This document shows, piece after piece, positions 3,598-33,893 of a DNA stretch of 64,000 bases. The position numbers were made by a program, and so were the translations under genes. The stretch comes from Pyrinomonadaceae bacterium (GTDB taxonomy: Bacteria; Acidobacteriota; Blastocatellia; Pyrinomonadales; Pyrinomonadaceae), in NCBI GenBank assembly GCA_019694355.1, contig JAIBCB010000005.1:42452-106451 (forward strand). The letters are read 5' to 3'. Position 1 is the first letter of the stretch, and each line of letters opens with the position of its first letter. A model generated the notes under the pieces. That model saw nothing but the letters and a program-made list of their open reading frames with translations, searched no databases and had not been told where the DNA came from.

Positions 3598-5088
3598 ATG
3601 CTCGAACTAAAGAACATCACAAAAACATTCGGTTCGGTGGTCGCGAATCGCGACGTTTCATTTAAGGTCGAGAAGGGCAAGATCCACGCGATCGTCGGCG
3701 AGAACGGTGCCGGAAAATCCACGATCATGAAGATCGCTTACGGATTTTACAATGCCGACAGCGGCGAGATCGTTTTCGACGGTCGAGAGGTTTCGATACG
3801 AACACCTCACGATGCGATCGCTCTCGGCATCGGGATGGTGCATCAGCATTTTATGCTCGTCGAGGCGATGACCGTCGCGGAGAACATCATCCTCGGTGCA
3901 GAGACCGGTTCCGCTGTGAACCTCGATCTTGACAAGGCGGAGAGCGAGATCCGGACGCTTTCCGAAGACCTGAAACTTGGCGTCGATCCGAAGGCGTTGG
4001 TCGAAGATCTCTCGGTCGGACAACAGCAGCGGGTCGAGCTTCTAAAGGCTCTCTATCGACACGCAGACCTCCTGATCTTGGATGAGCCGACCGCGGTGCT
4101 TTCGCCGCAAGAGGTCGATGATTTCTTCGCGATCCTGCGTCGGATGCGCGAGCAAGGCAAAACGATCATCATCATCACTCACAAGCTCGATGAGGTGCTC
4201 GCGATCTCCGATGAAGTTACCGTGATGCGTGACGGCAAGGTTGTCGGCAACGTGACGACGAGCGAGACGAACGCGAAGGAACTCGCACGAATGATCGTTG
4301 GCCGCGACGTTCTCCTTCGTGTTGAGAAGCCTGACGCTCATCCTAGCGGAAATATTCTTGAGGTTGAGCAGTTGTCGGTTCGGGGCAAGCACGACGTCGC
4401 CGTCGATGGTGTCTCTTTTGCAGTTCGGGCAGGCGAGATCGTCGGGATCGCCGGTATCGAAGGCAACGGGCAAACCGAGCTGATCGAGTGTCTTGCGGGG
4501 CTTGCCAAGGCCGCATCGGGCTCGATCAAATTTGACGGCCGCGACATCACATCCGCATCTGCTCGCAGGCGGAAAGAACTCGGCATTGCTCATATTCCGG
4601 AAGACAGACATCGACGCGGCCTGCTCTTGAATTCCGATCTTGCGGAGAATTCTATCCTCGGCGTTCACTATCGCCTGCCGATCGCTTCGGCAGGTTTTAT
4701 CAGCAGTGCAGCGGTGGAAAAACGTGTTACCGAGATCATCGAGAATTTTGACGTTCGTCCGCCGAACGCCGAACTTCCGGCTCGTGCTCTTTCGGGCGGC
4801 AATCAGCAAAAGCTAATAATCGGTCGCGAGTTCGAGATCGAACCGCGGCTGCTGCTCGTTTCACAACCGACCCGCGGAGTCGATATCGGCGCCATCGAAT
4901 TCATTCACCAAAAGCTGATCGAGCTGCGCGACTCAGGTGCCGCGATCCTGCTCGTTTCCGCTGAACTGGAAGAGGTTACCGCTCTCGCCGATCGCCTGCT
5001 CGTTATTCGGGAAGGTAAGATCGCAGGCGAGGTCGATCCAAAAACGACATCCATCGAAGACATCGGCCTCTTGATGACCGGCGGATGA
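3598..5088 (+). CDS. ABC transporter ATP-binding protein with two fused NBDs (nucleoside/sugar importer type)
   Basis: NBD1 has [20 protein letters not shown] and LILDEPT. NBD2 has a degenerate Walker A ([10 protein letters not shown]), LSGGNQQKL and [11 protein letters not shown]. This is the usual partner of BMP-family binding proteins. Confidence 0.9.
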
Positions 5089-5094
5089 GATTGC

Positions 5095-5410
5095 ATTCGT
5101 GATTCGTGGCTCCTTTTCCTTTAGTGTTGGAAAGAAGGTTTAGCCACGAATGCACGAATATGAACAGCCGCGAGTTTACGAATAAGAAGGGAGATGCACT
5201 GCCGATGAACCTCCATTCATTCGGTGTGCGTAGAAGAGAATTAATTCGTGAATTCGTGACTCCTTTTCCTTTAGTGTTGGAAAGAAGGTTTAGCGACGAA
5301 TGCGCGAATAAGAACAGCCGCGAGTTTACGAATATGAAGGGAGATGCGCTGCCGATGAACCTCCATTCATTCGGTGTGCGTAGAAAAGAATTAATTCGTG
5401 AATTCGTGGC
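5095..5410. repeat. Tandem 150-bp repeat (2.1 copies) built from alternating inverted 17-mers ATTCGTGAATTCGTGGC / GCCACGAATGCACGAAT
   Basis: TCCTTTTCC recurs at 5111 and 5261, giving a 150-bp period. R motifs lie at 5095-5110, 5244-5260 and 5394-5410. L motifs lie at 5143-5160 and 5293-5310. ORF 5106..5414 is a read-through of this repeat. Confidence 0.9.
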
Positions 5411-5421
5411 TTGAGATTTTC

Positions 5422-5793
5422 CTAGAGAACTATTCGGCGATAGTTCAATTTTTGTTCTCCGAAGTTAACGAGCAGAGCAAGACGGTTGCCAGATACTTTA
5501 AGGTAATTGAGAGCTTGTGCAATGTGTTCATTGGCAAGGCCAGCCATTCCTTTTACCTCGAGGATGATCGAGTCGAGCAATACAAAATCCGCAAAAAAAT
5601 GATGTTGTAGGGTCACTCCTTTGTATTGAACGCTATACTGCTTTTCTCGCTCGTATGAGATGCCGGCACGCTGGAACTCGATCTCAAGCGCGTCCTTGTA
5701 AACAACCTCGAGGAAGCCGGCACCTAAATGGTTGTGGACATCCATACAAATGCCAACGATCCTGTAGGATTCTTCTCGATAAACTATATCCAT
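5422..5793 (-). CDS. GxxExxY protein (PD-(D/E)XK nuclease superfamily, small ~124 aa)
   Basis: MDIVYREESYRIVGICMDVHNHLGAGFLEVVYKDALEIEF... carries the GxxExxY signature (GFLEVVY). Size and C-terminus (LLVNFGEQKLNYRRIV) are typical of the family. I set the start at ATG 5793. The 20 upstream codons of the listed ORF translate the flanking repeat. Confidence 0.85.
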   Translation of the reverse strand: MDIVYREESYRIVGICMDVHNHLGAGFLEVVYKDALEIEFQRAGISYEREKQYSVQYKGVTLQHHFFADFVLLDSIILEVKGMAGLANEHIAQALNYLKVSGNRLALLVNFGEQKLNYRRIVL

Positions 5794-5809
5794 AAAAGAA
5801 CAAGAAGCG

Positions 5810-5880
5810 GCCACGAATGCACGAATAAGACTGATCCTAGCTATTCTGGCCATTCATAATCAGCCACGAATGCACGAATA
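5810..5880. repeat. Two direct copies of the L motif GCCACGAATGCACGAATA
   Basis: Exact 18-mers at 5810-5827 and 5863-5880. The first is the inverted partner of 5394-5410 across the GxxExxY gene. Confidence 0.85.
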
Positions 5881-5933
5881 TAGCGTAAAGAAAGCCGCTT
5901 CGTATCCCTGGCTTGAAGACGCTCTAATCCGAT

Positions 5934-7124
5934 CTATCGTTTTGCGAAAAGCTCCCTCATTTGCCCGACGGCTTTCTCTAGGTTCTCCATAGAGGTTGCG
6001 TACGAGATCCGCAGATAGCCGTCGGCGCCGAAGCCTGCACCGTCGGTTACGACGATGTGAGCCTCTTTAAGCATTGCTTCCGCGACAGCTGCAGAGCTTG
6101 AGAACCTTTCGCCGACGAGTCCGCGGACATCTACAAAGGCGTAGAATGCACCTTCCGGCATTCCGCACTTGAATCCGTTCACTTTATTGAGTTCGGGAAT
6201 GAGCCAGTCGCGGCGGCGTTCGTACTCAGCGGTCATTGCGGCTACCGCAGCTTTCGTCTGATCGAAACTATCAAGAGCTTGCGCACAAGCGTATTGGACG
6301 AACGATGTTGGATGAGTGGCCGAATGGCTCTGGAGCTTGACCATCGCCTTTGTCCACTCAGGATTCGAGATCGTGTATCCGATACGCCAACCCGTCATCG
6401 CGAACGTCTTGGAAAAACTGCCTGCAACACAAACAAAATCGCGCACGCTGCTTGGGAGGACCGCTGAAGAGAAAGGCTCCGCCGGCGGATATGCAAAGAA
6501 CAAGTAACATTCATCCGTCAGAACATACACTCCGTGCGAGGCACACAATTCGATGATGCGGATGAGTTCATCTTTCGGGACGACGCGGCCGGTCGGGTTG
6601 TTAGGCGAATTGACGATCAGTAGCTTCGTCTTGTCATTGATCGCGGCCTCGACCATGTCGGCTGTTAGCACGAAGTCGTTGGCTTCTGTTTCGATGTATT
6701 TCGGTGTCGCCCGGCAGAAATGGACGATCTCAGGGAACGTGACCCAATACGGTTTTGGAATGAGAACCTCATCACCGGGATTCAGGAGCGTGCAGGCCGC
6801 GTTGAACAACGCTTGCTTACCTCCGCACGAAGCGGCGATCTCCTGCGGCGTTATTCTTGCACCAAATTCCTTTGCATAAAACTCGACGATCGACTGGCGG
6901 AACTGCGCGAGGCCCGAAGCAGGCGTGTACTTCGTCAAGCCCGAATGCAGGCCTTTGATGGCGAAATCCTTGATAAACTCAGGGGTGTCAAAGTCCGGCT
7001 CACCAACCGAAAGGTCAATTACTTCGATGCCCTTAGCACGCATTTCAGAAGCCATTTGGGCAGCGATCATGGTCGATGAACCGTGCATCGCCGCGACATT
7101 CTCAGAGACAATGAAATTCGACAT
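5934..7124 (-). CDS. Pyridoxal-phosphate-dependent aminotransferase, class I (aspartate aminotransferase-like)
   Basis: 396 aa. PLP-lysine motif SFSKTFAMTGWRIGY and NPNNPTG are typical of AspC-type class I aminotransferases. Confidence 0.9.
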   Translation of the reverse strand: MSNFIVSENVAAMHGSSTMIAAQMASEMRAKGIEVIDLSVGEPDFDTPEFIKDFAIKGLHSGLTKYTPASGLAQFRQSIVEFYAKEFGARITPQEIAASCGGKQALFNAACTLLNPGDEVLIPKPYWVTFPEIVHFCRATPKYIETEANDFVLTADMVEAAINDKTKLLIVNSPNNPTGRVVPKDELIRIIELCASHGVYVLTDECYLFFAYPPAEPFSSAVLPSSVRDFVCVAGSFSKTFAMTGWRIGYTISNPEWTKAMVKLQSHSATHPTSFVQYACAQALDSFDQTKAAVAAMTAEYERRRDWLIPELNKVNGFKCGMPEGAFYAFVDVRGLVGERFSSSAAVAEAMLKEAHIVVTDGAGFGADGYLRISYATSMENLEKAVGQMRELFAKR

Positions 7125-7179
7125 ACAAATGAGATTCTAGCGTTTATCTGTTTGGAATCCGAATTTGGAAGGCGGGTGA

Positions 7180-7270
7180 GCCACGAGGCACGAATAAGAA
7201 AGGATGTGTCGGCCGATGGATATCTAGCTATTCGATGCGCATAGAGGGAATTCATTCGAGAATTCGTGGC
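7180..7270. repeat. Solo miniature element with the same inverted termini (GCCACGAGGCACGAATA ... ATTCGAGAATTCGTGGC)
   Basis: 91 bp. The termini are degenerate copies of the L and R 17-mers seen at 5095-5880. The interior resembles the 83-nt interior of the tandem units (..GCCGATG.A..). Confidence 0.75.
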
Positions 7271-7280
7271 CAAATTGTTT

Positions 7281-7769
7281 TCAACCGAGCTTTTCGCGCA
7301 TTTTGGTTTCGACCAACTCGGGGATGAGCCCCTCGATCCGGCCGCCGAGTTCGAAGACCTGCTTCATCAGCGATGAGGAGACGTAAGAATATTCTTCGCC
7401 TGCCATCAAGAACACCGTTTCGATCGTTGGCTCGAGACGGCGATTCATCAAGGCCATTCGAAGTTCATATTCGTAATCGCTGACGGCCCGTATGCCGCGA
7501 ATGATCGCCGAGGCATCTACTGAGCGGGCGAATTCAGCGGTCAGGCCCGAGAAACTTTGTACCGTAAGATGGCAGCCGTCGCGTTTTATGCCGCGAAGAA
7601 CATCGTTGATCATTTCGCAACGCTCTTCGACGGAAAACATCGGGGCTTTGTCCGGATTATTTAGGACAGCAACGACGATCTCATCAAAAAGAGGTGTCGA
7701 GCGCTCCAAAATATCCAAGTGGCCGTTGGTTAAAGGGTCGAATGAGCCGGGAAATATTGCTTTTCGCAT
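7281..7769 (-). CDS. coaD: Phosphopantetheine adenylyltransferase
   Basis: MRKAIFPGSFDPLTNGHLDILERS... is the canonical CoaD N-terminus with the (T/H)xGH motif. 162 aa. Confidence 0.95.
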   Translation of the reverse strand: MRKAIFPGSFDPLTNGHLDILERSTPLFDEIVVAVLNNPDKAPMFSVEERCEMINDVLRGIKRDGCHLTVQSFSGLTAEFARSVDASAIIRGIRAVSDYEYELRMALMNRRLEPTIETVFLMAGEEYSYVSSSLMKQVFELGGRIEGLIPELVETKMREKLG

Positions 7770-8661: not shown

Positions 8662-8913
8662 ATGTCACATAATGTAAAACAGGCGAAGAATAATCTGAGC
8701 ACACTTATAAAACTTGCTGAAAAAGGCCAACCCCAAGTGATACGGCGGCACGACAAGGAGGTCGCGGTCGTTGTATCCATAGAGGACTGGAAAAAAGCAG
8801 GCGGAAAAAGGAAAACACTGCTGGAGATATTTCAAGGAAGCGGCCTGAAAGAGATTTTGCCATATTTGGAAGACCGTCCTGACGATCCGCCGAGAGAGGT
8901 GATCTTTGAATAA
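8662..8913 (+). CDS. Type II antitoxin, Phd/YefM family
   Basis: MSHNVKQAKNNLSTLIKLAEKGQPQVIRRHDKEVAVVVSIEDWKK is the typical Phd/YefM N-terminal pattern. It sits immediately upstream of a PIN toxin gene (TAA ATG junction). Confidence 0.85.
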   Translation: MSHNVKQAKNNLSTLIKLAEKGQPQVIRRHDKEVAVVVSIEDWKKAGGKRKTLLEIFQGSGLKEILPYLEDRPDDPPREVIFE

Positions 8914-9333
8914 ATGAGTTATTTGCTCGACACAAATGTCGTTTCAGAATCTGAACAGGTACGACCGAACCCTGCGGTTCTGAAGTGGCTTGCCGCCCGG
9001 GATGACACGAATATTTATCTAAGTGCTCTGACCGTAGGTGAGATACGTCGAGGGATTGAAATGCTTGAGTCGGGAAAGAAGAAAGCGCATCTTCGTAACT
9101 GGCTTGAATATATTCGGACAACATTTTCGCAACGTATTCTGCCGGTAACCGAATCAACTTTTGAAGTTTGGGGTGTAATGTTCGCGGCATTTGAAAGAAG
9201 GGGAATGAGGCGACCCATTTTCGATTCGCTCCTGGAGGCGACGGCTCTGGAACACGATCTGATCCTTGTTACGCGCAACGTGCGAAATTTTCAAGGTTCG
9301 TCTGTGACGATCCTAAATCCGTGGGAGGATTAA
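8914..9333 (+). CDS. vapC: Type II toxin, PIN-domain ribonuclease VapC (FitB-like)
   Basis: MSYLLDTNVVSE (first PIN acidic residue), ...LSALTVGEIRRGI..., ...LILVTRNVRNF. 139 aa. Confidence 0.9.
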   Translation: MSYLLDTNVVSESEQVRPNPAVLKWLAARDDTNIYLSALTVGEIRRGIEMLESGKKKAHLRNWLEYIRTTFSQRILPVTESTFEVWGVMFAAFERRGMRRPIFDSLLEATALEHDLILVTRNVRNFQGSSVTILNPWED

Positions 9334-29121: not shown

Positions 29122-32061
29122 ATGCGACACTTCTCGCTCATTGAAGGCGTAAGGATGCTTTCAAAACCAGGAGCACGGACTCTTACCAGTCTTCTTTTGC
29201 TTATGGCCCTGATCTTGCCGGCCGTTGTTCTAGGCCAGGATCTAAGATCGGCTCCGAGTGATTCCAATCTACCGGATGCAAGCCGGCACGCTCAAAAGCT
29301 CAATGTTAAGGTTGATCCCAATGCGGTCTCTTTTCCGCAGCAGGCAATTGTCTCTGAGCCTTTGGGCGGCAACCCTTGCGAATGGACAGCGGCGGCCGTT
29401 TCGCCGAGCCCGATCCTGGATCAGGCTACGACGGCGATTGGCTCGAATCTTTACACCTTTGCGGGCGTCGGCAGCGGAGCGGTTTTGGCGATCGCTCAGA
29501 AGTTCGATGGAACGGCATGGAGTAGCCTTGCATCCGTACCGGTCGCCCTCGAGTTTCCGTCGGCCGTTTCGGATGGCACGTCTGCATATATCGTCGCCGG
29601 TGTTGACGGAACTGGTACGAGCGTAAACACTCTTTACCGTTACAATCCGGGCACCAACGACTATACGACGCTTGCTCCCGCTCCGACCGCGACATGGAAT
29701 CAGGCGGTCGTGTATCTCAACGGTAAGATCTATAAGATCGGCGGCTACATATCGAGCGGCGGTACCACGAATTCTACGAATGCTCTTGATATCTACGACG
29801 TAACTGCGAACACCTGGTCGAGCGGTGCACCCTATCCGCTTGCTCAGGGTTGGATGTCAGCCTTTACCGATGGCACGTATATTTATGTGGCCGGCGGCGT
29901 TTCGTCCGTATCAGGGTCAGTTCCTTCGACCAAGACCTATCGATACGATCCCGGTACGAACACTTGGGATGATGCGGCGATCGCTGACCTGCCCGTGAGC
30001 CGTTGGGGTTCAGCATCATCGATCATCTCGTATCGCGGCGGCTGGGTGCTCGCCGGCGGCTATGTCGGCGGCACCGCTGCCACAGACCTTTCTGCAGCCA
30101 CGGTCAAATGGGATCCGGTCGCCAATTCCTGGTCGTCCCTGCCTGATATGCTCGCGGCTCGGGCCCGTATGACAGGTGCTGTTATCGGCGATGCCTTTCA
30201 CGTGATCGGCGGACGTTCTTCTGCAGGCGGATTTAACGGCACGAACGACAACCAGCGTTTGTTCTGTATAGACCCGAACCAGCCGTATCTTGTTGGCAGC
30301 GCTGCGTATGTTTCTGATAACGGCACGCCCGCAAATGGCGTTCCGGATCCGGGCGAAACGGTTACCGTTAGCCTTGCGGTCAACAACATTGGCGGCACCG
30401 CGTCCGGAAACGTGTCGGTTACCTTGGCGAACTCGGGCGGGATCACCAATCCGAGCGGCCCGATCAACTACGGCGTGATCGCACCTAATGCTTCGGCAAC
30501 TCAGAATTTCACATTCCAGGTTCCCGGAGACGCAGCGTGCGGAAGCGTGATCACCCTTTCCTTCGACATCGCAGATGGTGCGACGCACTACGCGACGACG
30601 AAGTCCTATAACCTTGGAGTTCTTCAGACGGCGTTCTCCGAGAATTTTGACGGTGTTACGGCGCCGACGCTGCCTTCCGGCTGGGTACAAAACCAGACCT
30701 CGGGCACCGGCATTACTTGGACGACGGTTACGTCCCCGGTAAATTCGGCTCCGAACTCAGCCTTCGCGAACGATCCGGGAGCGGTCAATGCTGCCGCACT
30801 CGAATCACCTGCGTTCAACATCTCGTCTGCGGGTTCGGTCCTTACTTTCAAGAACAACTACAATACCGAGAACACGTACGATGGTGCCGTTCTTGAGATC
30901 AAGATAGGTGCCGGATCGTGGACAGACTTTGTGACCGCTGGCGGATCGTTCAGTGCTGGCGGCTACAACGGAACGATCAGCACCAGCTTTGGAAGTCCGA
31001 TCGGAGGCCGACAGGCTTGGACAGGCAACGCGAACGGTTTCATCACAACGACCGCTACGTTCCCCGCGGCCGCTGTCGGTCAATCCGTACAGCTTCGTTG
31101 GCTGATGGCGTCGGATAGTTCGGTAGCTTCGACCGGTATCAACATCGACGACATCGCGGTCACGAGCGGCTATCTCTGCAACCAGCCCGCCGCCGTGAGG
31201 TCACGTGCTGATTTTGACGGCGACGGCAAATCGGATCTTTCGGTCTTCCGTCCGTCCGAAGGCAATTGGTACCTGGAGCTTACAGGCAACATTCCTTCCG
31301 GCATTTCGAGCCTAAACGTCGTTCATTGGGGAGCTGCGGGCGATTCTCTCGTACCGGGCGACTACGACAACGACGGCAGGACGGACTTTGCGGTCTGGCG
31401 TGCGAACGACACAGAGGGTGCCCCGGATTTCTACATCCTGAACAGCAATGACTTTACCTACAGCGGCATTGCATTCGGCAGGACAGGGGACGTTCCGCTT
31501 GCGGGCGATTATGACGGTGACGGCAAGACCGATGCCGCTATCTTCCGTCCGTCAGAAGGGAACTGGTATCTCTGGAGCTCGCAGGATGGCGGGACGACCG
31601 TTATTCCGTTCGGAAACAGCACAGATATACCGGTTTCGATCGACAACGATGGCGACGGCAAAGCGAATTTGGCCGTGTACCGTCCGTCCGAGGGCAACTG
31701 GTACATCCAGAATGCGACCGGATCCGCCGTCAGTGTCATCCAGTTCGGCACAATGGGCGACCTCCTCGTGCCGGCAGACTATGACGGTGACGATAAGGAC
31801 GACGTGGCTGTCTTCCGTCCGTCCAATGGAACATGGTACATCCTGAATTCCACGGACAGCAGCGTTAGCTACATTCCGTTCGGAACTTCGGGAGATGTCC
31901 CGGTCCCGGCCGACTATGATGGCGACGGAAAGGACGATATCGCTGTCTATCGCGGCGGTACATGGTATACCCTGTTCTCGAACGGCGGCAGCGGAGTGGC
32001 CAACTTCGGCCTTGCGTCCGATCAGCCTATTCCAACCGGATACCTTCCGGCTCAGAATTAG
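29122..32061 (+). CDS. Large secreted protein: six Kelch-like blades, CARDB-like and lectin/LamG-like regions, six FG-GAP/VCBS repeats
   Basis: Kelch-like h-x-h-GG strands occur at ~50-aa spacing (LYTFAGVG, AYIVAGVDG, IYKIGGY, IYVAGGV, WVLAGGY, FHVIGGRS). The C-terminus has D[FY]DGDGK.D.AV[FY]RPS.G.WY six times. The start is ATG 29122 (GGAGGG upstream) or 29155. The 28951 start is unlikely. Confidence 0.8.
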   Translation: MRHFSLIEGVRMLSKPGARTLTSLLLLMALILPAVVLGQDLRSAPSDSNLPDASRHAQKLNVKVDPNAVSFPQQAIVSEPLGGNPCEWTAAAVSPSPILDQATTAIGSNLYTFAGVGSGAVLAIAQKFDGTAWSSLASVPVALEFPSAVSDGTSAYIVAGVDGTGTSVNTLYRYNPGTNDYTTLAPAPTATWNQAVVYLNGKIYKIGGYISSGGTTNSTNALDIYDVTANTWSSGAPYPLAQGWMSAFTDGTYIYVAGGVSSVSGSVPSTKTYRYDPGTNTWDDAAIADLPVSRWGSASSIISYRGGWVLAGGYVGGTAATDLSAATVKWDPVANSWSSLPDMLAARARMTGAVIGDAFHVIGGRSSAGGFNGTNDNQRLFCIDPNQPYLVGSAAYVSDNGTPANGVPDPGETVTVSLAVNNIGGTASGNVSVTLANSGGITNPSGPINYGVIAPNASATQNFTFQVPGDAACGSVITLSFDIADGATHYATTKSYNLGVLQTAFSENFDGVTAPTLPSGWVQNQTSGTGITWTTVTSPVNSAPNSAFANDPGAVNAAALESPAFNISSAGSVLTFKNNYNTENTYDGAVLEIKIGAGSWTDFVTAGGSFSAGGYNGTISTSFGSPIGGRQAWTGNANGFITTTATFPAAAVGQSVQLRWLMASDSSVASTGINIDDIAVTSGYLCNQPAAVRSRADFDGDGKSDLSVFRPSEGNWYLELTGNIPSGISSLNVVHWGAAGDSLVPGDYDNDGRTDFAVWRANDTEGAPDFYILNSNDFTYSGIAFGRTGDVPLAGDYDGDGKTDAAIFRPSEGNWYLWSSQDGGTTVIPFGNSTDIPVSIDNDGDGKANLAVYRPSEGNWYIQNATGSAVSVIQFGTMGDLLVPADYDGDDKDDVAVFRPSNGTWYILNSTDSSVSYIPFGTSGDVPVPADYDGDGKDDIAVYRGGTWYTLFSNGGSGVANFGLASDQPIPTGYLPAQN

Positions 32062-32081
32062 GGTCGATCGGTAAAAACCTT

Positions 32082-32127
32082 AGCTGTTCGGAGCGTGCAA
32101 AGGCGTTCCGAACAGCTTTTTTCTTTT
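32082..32127 (+). terminator. Rho-independent terminator
   Basis: AGCTGTTCGGA (32082-32092) / TCCGAACAGCT (32107-32117) form an 11-bp stem, followed by TTTTTTCTTTT. Confidence 0.75.
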
Positions 32128-32187
32128 GATGCTTCGCGGCTATGCTGCCAATTTGTTTGCCTATTCGGAATGAAAAATGTGCATGCG

Positions 32188-32271
32188 CTTTGATACATTT
32201 TGTGCGGTTTGATACGTTTTGTGCGGAATGTGTCGATTTGTGCGGTTTGATACGTTTTGTGCGGTTTGTGC
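32188..32271. repeat. Four and a half direct 19-bp repeats (TTTGATACGTTTTGTGCGG), iteron-like
   Basis: Units at 32188-32207, 32208-32226, 32227-32245 (diverged) and 32246-32264, plus a partial unit at 32265-32271. The period is not a multiple of 3. Confidence 0.8.
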
Positions 32272-32407
32272 TTCAAACGTGCGCGTCGGTTCGCTATGAT
32301 GACAACACGGTCGAACCGGCCGCTTGGTCTTTGAAAAACTTAGTTCGTGGTTCGTTGTAAATTGCTCATTGTTCTTTGGTCATCGGTCATTGATCTTTGG
32401 TCTTTGC

Positions 32408-32580
32408 GGCTTGCCGCAGCGCAGTGCGGTCGGGCTTGCCCGACCGTCACACGACTTAGGAATATATCGGAGCGTGCGGAGCACGCGACAGAGCGTTTGT
32501 CGGCGGCAAGCCGCCTCCGGGAGTCTGAGGTGGCAATTGACGGTCGGGCAAGCCCGACCGCACTGCCAAGGGGCAAGCCC
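32408..32580. repeat. ~170-bp element with 26-nt terminal inverted repeats (copy A)
   Basis: GCAGTGCGGTCGGGCTTGCCCGACCG (32421-32446) is the exact reverse complement of CGGTCGGGCAAGCCCGACCGCACTGC (32541-32566). There is a central palindrome TGTCGGCGGCAAGCCGCCTCC. Confidence 0.8.
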
Positions 32581-32794
32581 GTGAGGCAAGTGGCCTTCGT
32601 CCTTCGCGTTCTTTGCGTCTCCTTTGCGTTCTTTGCGTTTACGATCTTGTTTGGAAACGCAAAGGCCGCCAAGCTAAATCCACAAAGATCGCGGAGATAC
32701 AGGATTCTGAATCCCAGATTTGAAATTTGAAATGTGAGATTCAAGATTTCAGGCCCTCGCTTGATCAGGGCTGTATTTCAAGTTTTGAAATATG

Positions 32795-32811
32795 ATTCGT
32801 GAATTCGTGGC
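32795..32811. repeat. Solo ATTCGTGAATTCGTGGC motif (same 17-mer as at 5394-5410)
   Basis: It is an exact 17-mer. I saw no partner L motif nearby. Confidence 0.7.
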
Positions 32812-32853
32812 TGCTTTCTTCCGTTGCAAACTTTGTTGCTCGATCGTTTTTGT

Positions 32854-33070
32854 GGCTTGCCGCATTGCAGTGCGGTCGGGGTTCGTGGGTCATAGATCCC
32901 CACGTGTTGCAAAAAACGCCACCGTGCCCGACCGTCACTCGGATTACGAATATTTCGGAGCGTGCGAAGCACGCGACAGAGCGTTTGTCGGCGGCAGGCC
33001 GCCTCCAGAAGGGTCGGTGTACGCTCATCGGTCGGGCAAGCCCTACCGCACTGCCAAGGGGCAAGCCCGG
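32854..33070. repeat. Copy B of the TIR element, with a 46-bp insertion in the left-arm hairpin loop
   Basis: It is collinear with copy A, except that GGTCGGG[46 nt, 32881-32926]CCCGACC interrupts the left arm. The right arm is CGGTCGGGCAAGCCCTACCGCACTGCCAAGGGGCAAGCCCGG. Confidence 0.75.
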
Positions 33071-33254
33071 AAGATGGTCTAGGTCTTGTCGGCGGCGAGC
33101 CGCCTCGAAGAGAACTGAAAGCGGAGAATTGAGAATGGAATATGTGGTTGGAAATTTTTTTGCGAAATTCTGGGACAAATCGCGTAAGTGACTGAGAACA
33201 CAGCACTTATGTGTCCCAGAGGCTGTCCCACGAGCGTCTTGGCTGGGACAAAAG

Positions 33255-33390
33255 ACGGCCATTGGCGGCGGCAAGCCGCCTCCAGGAGTCTGATCTGGCT
33301 AGGGACGGTCGGGCAAGCCAGACCGCACTGCGAAAGGGCATAGCTCGGAAGATGTTCTCAGTCTTGTCGGCGGCAAGCCGCCTCCGAGGT
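33255..33390. repeat. Copy C: right half of the TIR element plus the GTCTTGTCGGCGGCAAGCCGCCTCC tail
   Basis: It starts at the central GGCGGCAAGCCGCCTCC palindrome and runs through CGGTCGGGCAAGCCAGACCGCACTGC. The tail motif also follows copy B (33083-33107). Confidence 0.65.
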
Positions 33391-33466
33391 TGGTTTTGGG
33401 GCACGGTTCCACGGCATAAATGCCGTGGCAATTCGGCGGCGGAGCCCTTACTAACGTGAATACTGC

Positions 33467-33882
33467 CCGCCCGCTGACACAGGCGGTTCTGACAAGACCA
33501 CCCGCTACCGCAGGTGGTACTGACAGGGCCTGGCCGCCCGCGACGTGGGCTTGGGATCTGGCTAACACCGAACGCCCTTACGAACGTGCGGGCTTCGGCA
33601 ACCGAAATACAACAGGCAATTGGCGGGCAAGAGGATCAATTACAGCTGTCAGCTATGAGCTATCAGCTATCAGCGAACACGATGTTTGAAAACCTTACGG
33701 TTGCGGGCTTTTGCAATGCTGACCGCCCGCTGACGCAGGCGGTTCTGACAATACCACCCGCTACCGCAGGTGGTACTGACTGCCCACTGCTGACGGCTCA
33801 CTGGCGACCACCCGCTACCGCAGGTGGTACTGACTGCCCACTGCTGACGGCTCACTGGCGACCGCCCGCTCACGCAGAGGTG
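33467..33882. repeat. Cluster of 27-nt hairpin units (CCRCC-CGCTRMCRCA-GGYGG-TWCTGAC), including a 2 x 54-bp tandem
   Basis: Units at 33467-33493, 33498-33524, 33723-33749, 33754-33780 and 33808-33834, with a degenerate one at 33862-33882. Segments 33754-33807 and 33808-33861 are identical 54-bp repeats. Confidence 0.8.
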
Positions 33883-33893
33883 TCGGCGTTCCG

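Follow-up and report, generated by a model that had tools for sequence, protein, structure and literature searches.

The locus described here raises the question of whether a small nuclease-fold gene and the short inverted repeats that enclose it constitute a single genetic unit and, if so, what kind of unit this would be. The locus lies in a 64-kb stretch of DNA, hereafter the window. Its repeat is a 17-mer with the consensus GCCACGAAT(G/T)CACGAAT, and nine copies of it, in one orientation (L) or as the complement (R), occur within 5095-7270. The features of the region are as follows.

5095-5110, 5244-5260, 5394-5410 and 7254-7270: R copies, the first of 16 nt with one base missing
5143-5159, 5293-5309, 5810-5826, 5863-5879 and 7180-7195: L copies, the second with 2 mismatches and the last of 16 nt with one base missing
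5095-5408: tandem array, 150-nt unit, 2.1 copies, 95% identity, R and L alternating
5167-5183 and 5317-5333: degenerate L-like copies GCCGCGAGTTTACGAAT, one per 150-nt unit
5394-5410: R copy ATTCGTGAATTCGTGGC, left arm of the inverted pair enclosing the gene, 11 nt past the GxxExxY stop codon
5422-5793, minus strand: GxxExxY gene, 123 aa, matching the TIGR04256 and PF13366 (PDDEXK_3) profiles
5810-5826: L copy GCCACGAATGCACGAAT, right arm of the enclosing pair, 16 nt before the GxxExxY start codon
5863-5879: further L copy, oriented like the one before it and 36 nt past it, equal to the solo motif retained in the gene-less allele of relatives L212 and L231
7180-7270: gene-less L-58-R hairpin in the coaD-aminotransferase spacer, homologous throughout to the L...R portion of the 150-nt unit
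32795-32811: solo R copy in a repeat-rich spacer of 1.8 kb that holds no genes

A motif scan recovered the copies and complements of the original prediction at all of their sites, including the solo R, and the predicted order R-L-R-L-R, GxxExxY gene, L-L, aminotransferase gene, L-R was correct. The predicted spacers of 33/83 nt and 35/57 nt measured 32/84 and 36/58 nt. The 17-nt arms at 5394-5410 and 5810-5826 are 94% complementary and exactly 399 nt apart, and they are able to pair around the whole gene, as had been proposed. The gene itself had been described as 399 nt long; this figure is the distance between the arms, whereas the ORF proper comprises 372 nt (5422-5793). Long hairpins were predicted on both strands of the array at 5095-5408, with fold z-scores of -6.2 and -7.8 for the R-32-L hairpin and of -2.9 and -3.4 for L-84-R. 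The repeats also matter for annotation, as a spurious 84-aa ORF is drawn over them in public gene calls. A further fuzzy match at 29764-29781 falls within a long ORF and was taken as chance.

An arrangement of this kind could in principle arise by chance or through faulty assembly of tandem repeats, as the sequence stems from a metagenome assembly in which repeats may be collapsed or expanded. However, 8-10 copies were observed against a chance expectation of 0.35 matches (≤3 mismatches), and none of 100 shuffles reached 8. The same arrangement is present in nine independently assembled contigs, the orthologous locus L210 displays the same gene-repeat design, and the design was found again in isolate genomes. 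This explanation is already refuted, and we assign it practically no probability.

The enclosed gene belongs to the GxxExxY family, as predicted, scoring 131.6 bits against TIGR04256 (cut-off 35; profile positions 2-116 of 116) and 119.8 bits against PF13366 (cut-off 22). Conserved residues of the protein are E29, D69, E79-x-K81 and Q93xxxY97, of which D69, E79-V-K81 and Q93xxxY97 form invariant columns in an alignment of 24 sequences. An AlphaFold2 model (pLDDT 94) presented the element order H H E E E H E E. In a Foldseek comparison with the PDB, the top match was Cas4 SSO0001 (4ic1; E 1e-4), followed by lambda exonuclease, LHK-Exo and also ACE1, while splicing endonucleases matched far more weakly than the DNA exonucleases and Cas4. 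The catalytic D...(D/E)xK, the QxxxY motif and the fold order are those of the RecB/Cas4-like branch of the PD-(D/E)XK superfamily, and the protein models as a minimal Cas4/RecB/lambda-exonuclease-like nuclease core. It has no Fe-S cysteine cluster and is therefore not a canonical Cas4. The catalytic motif D..ExK..QxxxY looks intact, and the predicted enzyme appears active and constrained. Comparison with the L210 ortholog gave a dN/dS of 0.057 at a dS of 0.89; the gene is thus under strong purifying selection (dN/dS 0.06).

The family is large, with 17,235 clusters at 50% identity for GxxExxY/PDDEXK_3 and 4,148 close relatives of the protein studied here. In some genomes it forms large paralog sets; within the window the gene is present as a single copy. 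Searches in specialised collections returned little: the family profile had no match in a PDB sequence search, and PHROGs gave a marginal endonuclease match only. Homologs were absent from phage genomes and present in 8 of 72,556 plasmid records, all of them large non-mobilizable replicons, so there is no sign of plasmid or phage carriage. PDDEXK_3 has been entered as 'Unknown' with 'multiple transfers' (Steczkiewicz et al., 2012; PMC3424549).

The association between gene and repeat extends far beyond the window. At least 120 genome stretches, representing six phyla, contain the exact 17-mer, for the most part in hairpins between genes, the hosts being Bacteroidota, Ignavibacteria, Chlorobiota, Chloroflexia, Planctomycetaceae and Acidobacteria, with no Proteobacteria or Firmicutes among the stretches listed. 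Starting from the repeat, a GxxExxY ORF lies within 36 nt of the motif in six of the eight motif loci that have such an ORF. Starting from the gene, the 17-mer (≤3 mismatches) occurs within 150 nt in 63 of 80 metagenomic relatives, on both sides in 44. A relaxed word doublet was detected within the same distance in 68 of 77 metagenomic relatives (88%), as against 21 of 795 control windows (2.6%). Similarly, 53% of the genes have a flank inverted-repeat score of at least 12, compared with 1.8% of control ORFs (p = 7e-16). The claim that gene and repeats behave as a unit is therefore upheld across phyla and from both sides.

Distant family members (28-47% identity) from Bacteroides, Bernardetia, Sphingomonas, Gemmatirosa and Treponema are flanked by inverted arrays of related, differing 7-9-nt words. 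Deep-clade arrays were found in Bacteroides finegoldii, Bernardetia, Sphingomonas, Treponema, Prevotella and two Gemmatirosa paralogs. The word of the window clade is CACGAAT, arranged as GCCACGAAT-N-CACGAAT, and those of other clades are CACGGAT, CGCGGAT, CRCAGAGGA, CACAGAGA and CGCGAAGG. A single Gemmatirosa replicon carries the GxxExxY gene in three places, and its two paralogs have two different words, each being the word of their nearest protein relatives in other phyla. Word type tracks the protein clade rather than the host; within the close subfamily, the relation between word variant and protein identity was not significant (p = 0.09). The window is one instance of a family-wide cassette of about 450-480 bp, in which a ~125-aa GxxExxY gene is flanked, usually within 30 nt on each side, by arms made of two or three tandem 7-9-nt words.

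Gene-less copies had been predicted alongside gene-bearing ones; they exist and are the more numerous, the words recurring without the gene in many intergenic hairpins and in tandem arrays. Alignment identified three occurrences in the window of a ~95-nt L-57/60-R element with a conserved interior. Among relatives, the hairpin at 7180-7270 is retained in L228, cut to 24 nt in L212 and missing from L214 and L215, and the L210 version differs in its loop and carries a compensatory A:T to G:C change. The arms of inverted pairs co-vary. Gene-less units elsewhere have the order L-loop-R in 48 cases and R-loop-L in 9. With L-loop-R as the canonical unit, the window gene therefore sits between units and does not replace a 33-nt mini-hairpin, contrary to the original prediction. 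The motif lies outside long ORFs in 85% of cases, though ORFs make up 78% of those loci. A consensus scan identified no canonical terminator at the hairpins, and Rfam gave no match on the whole window (gathering thresholds) or on 4900-7500 (E up to 10).

The abundance of these hairpins invites an explanation in which the association is passive. The word hairpins would then be REP-like intergenic elements that terminate transcription, stabilise mRNA or act as hot spots of recombination, and slippage or some other factor would have spread them. Small accessory genes, GxxExxY among them, would land or survive best beside such hairpins, and the protein would perform an unrelated job such as repair or defence. 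Consistent with this, hairpins outnumber genes ~13 to 1 at the motif-selected loci and prefer the 3' sides of genes (neighbours tandem in 39 cases, convergent in 15, divergent in 5). One relative has defence-like surroundings (SNF2, KilA-N, GxxExxY, Eco57I-like), and purifying selection with long residence is compatible with a host function. The specificity of the association argues against it: across all loci examined, 30 small ORFs lie within a strong inverted repeat and 27 of these are GxxExxY, while one of the remaining three is a DUF559-like endonuclease with a different palindrome. The clade-specific words accompany the protein across phyla and even within one replicon, and PADLOC models at E up to 1 returned no defence-family match. 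A link to a RAYT-like gene found no support: the Y1_Tnp gene of L214 is flanked by another palindrome (GCCCGC...GCGGGC), and no Y1_Tnp adjoins CACGAAT motifs at the loci examined.

The predicted search for empty sites bears on the same explanation, and such sites were found in close and distant relatives. In L228, the closest relative, the spacer is reduced to 29 nt and contains neither gene nor motif; L212 and L231 keep one solo motif and no gene, and L214 and L215 have no motif. In Sphingomonas paeninsulae the fabD|fabG spacer is empty and devoid of words, whereas in S. parapaucimobilis it holds an inverted repeat, the gene and a second inverted repeat. The ABC|aminotransferase spacer of Chloracidobacterium is also occupied, in the opposite orientation. 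The window differs from L228 in the following segment.

5070-5978 (approximate): segment differing from L228, with 96-98% nucleotide identity elsewhere

Besides the repeats and the GxxExxY gene, this segment includes the final ~20 nt of the ABC gene on one side and the final ~45 nt of the aminotransferase gene on the other. The 3' end of the window aminotransferase gene and the first 47 nt of the spacer match the L212 lineage and not L228. Ordinary homologous recombination can explain this polymorphism, and its resemblance to allelic replacement is a point in favour of a passive association. At orthologous empty sites the gene is missing along with most or all of the repeats, and this joint absence of the words counts against a passive association. 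Overall, we consider a passive association unlikely, while giving it appreciable weight. Gene and repeats are gained, lost and passed on together.

A further possibility is that the cassette acts at the RNA level. The transcribed arms would form a stem like that of rRNA intervening sequences and be cut by RNase III or by the encoded protein, thereby insulating the operon, setting the level of the small mRNA or providing self-regulation. The setting of the gene agrees with this: only 10-30 nt separate the upstream arm from the start codon, which is too little room for a promoter, and a consensus scan revealed nothing resembling a promoter in the vicinity of the gene. In 47 of 55 cases the neighbour upstream runs in the same direction, some cassettes lie inside operons (e.g. 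fabD|fabG), and the stems are stable as RNA. The arms themselves point the other way. Wobble counting on the sense strand gave 33 A.C mismatches against 13 of the G.U type, the opposite of what the intervening-sequence-like RNA stem of the original prediction would lead one to expect, and that idea finds no support. Gene orientation relative to L and R is variable in the 43 two-sided cases (LgR 18, RgL 14, RgR 9, LgL 2), and the arms are direct rather than inverted in 11 of them, a quarter. The gene-less hairpins fold equally well on both strands, Rfam has no match, and the nearest folds are DNA exonucleases and Cas4, far ahead of splicing endonucleases. We therefore regard an RNA-level role as improbable.

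The idea of a selfish mobile cassette is supported in part. Gene-less copies and empty sites agree with it; target duplication, a copy at a second locus and enrichment on plasmids or phages were not seen. No target-site duplication or clean insertion junction was visible in the compared genomes, some of which are too distant while the others differ through recombination of a tract that enters the flanking genes. Exact-sequence look-ups of two relatives gave no identical gene copy at a second locus, P0046 and P0021 having one context each. We infer, with these reservations, that the cassette may move.

Our best reading, which we hold tentatively and at somewhat less than an even chance, is a partnership resembling that of REP sequences and RAYTs, in which a PD-(D/E)XK nuclease takes the place of the HUH transposase. 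The GxxExxY protein would be the cognate nuclease of the flanking word arrays, recognising them as duplex, cruciform or single-stranded hairpin DNA and nicking or cutting there. Host recombination and repair could subsequently copy or rearrange the DNA between or beside the arms. Such repair-driven copying would carry the gene from allele to allele along with co-converted flanks, in a homing-like manner, and the same process would multiply or delete gene-less hairpins. Against this reading stand the single gene copy in the 64-kb window, the variable orientation of the gene with direct arms in 11 of 43 two-sided cases, the non-significant relation of word variant to protein identity in the close subfamily, and the fact that a 123-aa nuclease shows no evident strand-transfer activity. 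The long vertical persistence and the purifying selection suggest a stable, possibly host-tolerated or useful partnership and not a fast-moving transposon. A bolder generalisation, which is possible but doubtful, would make the GxxExxY proteins, with >17,000 clusters at 50% identity, the dedicated nucleases of palindromic word arrays that form a hitherto unrecognised class spanning several phyla. The ~470-bp IR-gene-IR unit would then be a minimal self-propagating cassette using a Cas4-like nuclease and host recombination, with the CACGAAT-type hairpins of Bacteroidota, Acidobacteriota, Chlorobiota and others as its non-autonomous offspring, and the whole would be a second counterpart of REPIN-RAYT with an independent mechanism.

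GxxExxY/PDDEXK_3 is a very large protein family without an assigned function, and the CACGAAT-type hairpins are a conspicuous intergenic feature of several major phyla that, as far as we found, is apparently undescribed. None of the papers naming GxxExxY concerned the repeat link, and no paper with the 15-mers was found. Linking the family with the hairpins provides a testable hypothesis for both, namely that a nuclease acts sequence-specifically on a defined candidate substrate of 17 nt, and would account for the small insertions seen repeatedly within conserved operons. A real partnership would in addition offer a compact enzyme, possibly with a defined recognition sequence.

Several known systems share part of this design. 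TIR transposons with their MITEs and integron cassettes likewise present an inverted-repeat-bounded unit with shorter cargo-less relatives, as well as a small gene that lacks a promoter, runs in the direction of its upstream neighbour and precedes an imperfect palindrome. Unlike them, the GxxExxY cassette contains no DDE, serine or tyrosine recombinase and measures only about 450-480 bp; no target duplication was seen in the compared genomes. An integron gene cassette was rejected, the arms being CRCNRAT-type words and not attC core sites (RYYYAAC/GTTRRRY), with no integrase, no array of different cassettes and housekeeping neighbours.

Free-standing homing endonuclease genes (intronless homing), which include the PD-(D/E)XK enzyme I-Ssp6803I, are also small nuclease genes wedged between conserved genes and patchily present at one orthologous spacer among relatives. 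The allele difference observed here runs tens of bases into both flanking genes, in the manner of co-conversion tracts. However, homing genes have no conserved inverted repeats around them and leave no gene-less hairpin families, and they usually decay once fixed, whereas the GxxExxY gene maintains a dN/dS of 0.06 over a dS of 0.9. The ORF-bearing intervening sequences of 23S rRNA, which encode a four-helix-bundle protein (TIGR02436) and whose stem is cut by RNase III, similarly place a small ORF inside inverted repeats able to close the insert; theirs, too, is a multi-copy protein family of unknown function in overlapping phyla. The GxxExxY cassettes differ in lying between protein-coding genes, with no rRNA or Rfam family in the window, in their protein family, and in a mismatch pattern that speaks against a sense RNA stem. 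No four-helix-bundle gene occupied such a cassette among the loci examined.

The closest likeness is to the REP/REPIN-RAYT system. In both, numerous short palindromes populate intergenic DNA as singlets, doublets and clustered arrays, the gene of one dedicated small enzyme lies between inverted copies of this dispersed repeat, the repeat sequence goes with the enzyme clade, and inheritance is mostly vertical under purifying selection. The enzymes differ, since the one here is of the PD-(D/E)XK type (Cas4/lambda-exo-like) whereas RAYT is an HUH/Y1 transposase (IS200/IS605-type). The arms here consist of tandem 7-9-nt words and not of GTAG- or CGTC-tagged palindromes, an identical 17-mer is common to several phyla, and the gene can be multi-copy, as in the Gemmatirosa replicon. 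If the proposed partnership is real, it would be the second case after REPIN-RAYT of long-lived repeats kept with a dedicated enzyme, built on another catalytic fold.

Repeat words at 5095-7270 occur as nine copies of GCCACGAATGCACGAAT (L) or its near-complement ATTCGTGAATTCGTGGC (R), with a tenth at 32795. A motif search allowing up to three mismatches returned 8 L/R matches against 0.35 expected, and an indel-tolerant search added two 16-nt copies (5095-5110 and 7180-7195). The elements around the GxxExxY gene were located as follows.

5095-5408: 150-nt tandem repeat
5394-5410: R arm, 94% complementary to the L arm, with 399 nt between the two
5422-5793, minus strand: full-length GxxExxY (PDDEXK_3) ORF, enclosed by the R and L arms
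5810-5826: L arm

Motif, inverted-repeat and ORF searches bore out the layout of repeats and gene described in the original prediction, whose spacer lengths were one off. The same arrangement was present in nine independently assembled metagenome contigs; the source organism belongs to the Pyrinomonadaceae (phylum Acidobacteriota). The window also holds three copies of a gene-less L...R element of ~95 nt, the interior of which is conserved. An ORF runs through the tandem repeat (5106-5414, plus strand), and its opposite strand is called as an 84-aa gene in public contigs (L001-L006); this ORF is most likely spurious, since no protein family matched it and its residues merely mirror the repeat.

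According to the original prediction, GxxExxY genes typically adjoin CACGAAT-like repeats. The window protein had 4,148 relatives at E ≤ 1e-10 (best 68-75% identical; at least five phyla), and 80 metagenomic loci with relatives 60-70% identical to it were sampled. The 17-mer, at no more than three mismatches, lay within 150 nt of the gene in 63/80 loci and on both sides in 44/80. Most seeming exceptions carried the variants CACAGAT, CGCGAAT, CACTAAT, CGCTAAT or CACAAAT, in which both heptamers and both arms were altered jointly. A relaxed doublet (C[AG]CN[AGC]AT-N-C[AG]CN[AGC]AT) was found at 68 of the 77 distinct genes, against 21/795 control windows of equal length elsewhere in the same loci. 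When the two 90-nt flanks were paired without reference to any motif, the top inverted-repeat score was at least 12 in 53% of the genes, compared with 1.8% of control ORFs (p = 7e-16). Across all loci examined, a strong inverted repeat enclosed 30 ORFs of 80-260 aa, 27 of which were GxxExxY. Viewed from the gene, the link to the repeat is close to a rule.

The order of the arms was variable (L-gene-R 18, R-gene-L 14, R-gene-R 9, L-gene-L 2), and two layouts recurred: the gene within one L...R pair, or flanked by two complete hairpins. The arms could be read as the stem of an RNA; this reading is weakened by the mismatch spectrum, as the sense-strand arms of the 44 sampled genes with a flanking inverted repeat (L130-L209) contained 33 A·C mismatches versus 13 of the G·U type (G·T; p = 0.0045).

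Viewed from the repeat, an exact scan for GCCACGAATKCACGAAT with one genome per species returned at least 120 stretches. The sources among the matches listed were Flavobacterium, Chryseobacterium, Chitinophagales, Cytophagales, Bacteroidales, Ignavibacteria, Chlorobiota, Acidobacteria, Chloracidobacterium, a Chloroflexia MAG and a Planctomycetaceae MAG; none was from Proteobacteria, Firmicutes or Actinobacteria. Among these matches the motif was mainly intergenic, with 15% of 262 inside long ORFs, which make up 78% of the DNA. Its commonest forms there were the L-loop-R hairpin (48 vs 9 R-loop-L) and the tandem array, and the spacers holding it were tandem (39), convergent (15) or divergent (5), divergent promoter spacers being avoided. 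A GxxExxY ORF was present in 8 of the 120 listed motif loci, no more than 36 nt from the motif in 6 of the 8; where a small ORF was tightly enclosed by two motifs in the listed loci, it was GxxExxY.

Annotated GxxExxY genes with 28-47% identity to the window protein were likewise bracketed, by different words.

Words at GxxExxY genes of distant clades
Bacteroides finegoldii, between radA and a FAD protein: CACAGAGGA/CGCAGAGGA arrays, 30-nt arms, 90% complementary
Bernardetia: CACAGAGA words
Sphingomonas parapaucimobilis, within the fabD|fabG operon: CGCGAAGG/CGCGAGGA words
Treponema saccharophilum: CACGGAT
Prevotella nigrescens: CAAATC-type words
Fusobacteria plasmid: direct repeat containing ATCCGTG

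One annotated gene, from Persicobacter, was without such a repeat. A single Gemmatirosa replicon carries two paralogs, each with its own word: the first shares the CGCAGAGGA word with its closest protein relative in Bacteroides (48.6% identity), and the second has CGCGGAT, a word of the CACGGAT/CACGAAT clade. These different, clade-matched words indicate that at this depth the choice of word goes with the protein clade rather than with the host. Among members of the close subfamily, word variant did not track protein identity (p = 0.09). A passive reading of the repeats as a 'safe haven' is weakened by the specificity of the enclosed ORFs and by the clade-specific words. The unit is a conserved cassette, in which co-varying word-array arms with clade-specific words surround a nuclease gene, and there are related gene-less hairpins. 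In S. parapaucimobilis (L235:1480-1908), the annotated ORF runs through the right-hand repeat arm and stops 2 nt before fabG; the homologous protein end lies ~18 codons earlier, and the arm is therefore translated there as a C-terminal tail.

Loci orthologous to the coaD-aminotransferase-ABC region of the window were recovered from relatives.

Orthologous loci compared with the window
L210: 83% nucleotide identity; gene at the same place, same arms, downstream array different
L212/L231: 83% nucleotide identity; without the gene, one solo motif and 10 nt kept
L214, L215: motif wholly absent
L228-L230: closest, 96-98% nucleotide identity; 29-nt spacer without gene or motif, coaD-aminotransferase hairpin kept

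Gene presence was patchy on a neighbour-joining tree of three flanking genes, (window,(L212,(L214,L210))) with L215 outside. Near-identity between the window and L228 breaks off ~45 nt ahead of the aminotransferase stop and ~20 nt ahead of the ABC stop; between these points lies the cassette of the window, whose aminotransferase 3' end matches the L212 lineage exactly. A divergent tract reaching into both flanking genes, together with this L212-type end, points to replacement of one allele by another, with conversion of the flanks, rather than to a clean insertion. In the genome of Chloracidobacterium sp. GCA_016715795.1 (flanking proteins 72-80% identical), a 71% identical GxxExxY gene occupies the same convergent spacer in opposite orientation, between two hairpins bearing the identical 17-mer. 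The empty fabD|fabG spacer of Sphingomonas paeninsulae had none of the words bracketing the S. parapaucimobilis gene. Gene and repeats are gained and lost jointly; no direct sign of movement was seen among the loci compared. The coaD-aminotransferase spacer hairpin of Chloracidobacterium sp. GCA_016715795.1 (L250:3740-3860) carries CGCAGAGA three times per arm, and the orthologous window site is a CACGAAT hairpin; different word types therefore share one site across genera.

The GxxExxY family and its fold class are already known and annotated; PDDEXK_3 has been given unknown function and 'multiple transfers' (PMC3424549). An alignment of 24 relatives showed E29, D69, E79-x-K81 and Q93xxxY97 to be invariant. 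The AlphaFold2 model of the window protein was confident (pLDDT 94), and its nearest PDB folds were Cas4 SSO0001, lambda exonuclease, LHK-Exo, ACE1 and the AddAB/AdnAB nuclease domains, with far lower scores for splicing endonucleases and Holliday-junction resolvases. These neighbours make it a minimal nuclease core of the RecB/Cas4-like type that lacks the iron-sulfur module. Selection has long maintained the gene; dN/dS was 0.057 at dS 0.89 against the L210 ortholog, and the housekeeping neighbours were alike. The family comprises 17,235 clusters at 50% identity, almost all ~125-aa single-domain proteins. No member was found in the phage genomes searched and few on plasmids, and no known defence model matched the protein. 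The family also includes about a dozen representatives of ~250-390 aa with two GxxExxY domains (e.g. P0295, P0296, P0340, P0347), which are either tandem fusions or adjacent paralogs read through. In Cloacimonetes-type contigs (L243:1-4375), the close relative P0046 lies in a defence-island-like setting with hairpins on either side, between a KilA-N protein (SNF2 helicase upstream) and an Eco57I-like type IIG restriction-modification gene.

Other repeat-rich sites were also observed. The solo R copy lies in a 1.8-kb gene-free spacer (32062-33893) flanked by two convergent large ORFs and holding several unrelated palindromic or tandem repeat families: ~80-nt GGCAAGCC...GGCTTGCC units (3 copies), CCACCCGCTACCGCAGGTGGT hairpins and TTTGTGCGG words. 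A hairpin at 32600-32673 is built from CTTTGCG/CGCAAAG word doublets, and these words adjoin CACGAAT hairpins in Flavobacterium and another Acidobacteria genome (L035, L049, L039). Their resemblance to the CGCGAAGG words that bracket the Sphingomonas gene makes them possible gene-less partners of another clade. A second variable site (8662-9333, between HAD hydrolase and Lar_N genes; compared with L212, L214 and L231) holds a PhdYeFM/PIN toxin-antitoxin pair in the window, a T5orf172 protein in L212, and in L214 a Y1_Tnp (RAYT-like) gene with GCCCGC...GCGGGC palindromes on its flanks. At L023:5294-5674, a 126-aa ORF, putatively akin to the DUF559/Vsr-like endonucleases, sits inside a perfect 20-nt palindrome pair of another sequence (TCCCCTCTAAAAAGAGGGGA) and may be another small nuclease gene bracketed by its own repeat.

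A literature search found no papers on the repeats or on the repeat-gene link, which a database comment may mention. In the mechanism that we propose, the nuclease would recognise its own words, and cutting at them would drive copying or loss dependent on recombination. Spread between alleles would be homing-like, and the logic would be that of REP-RAYT, as another system pairing repeats with an enzyme dedicated to them.
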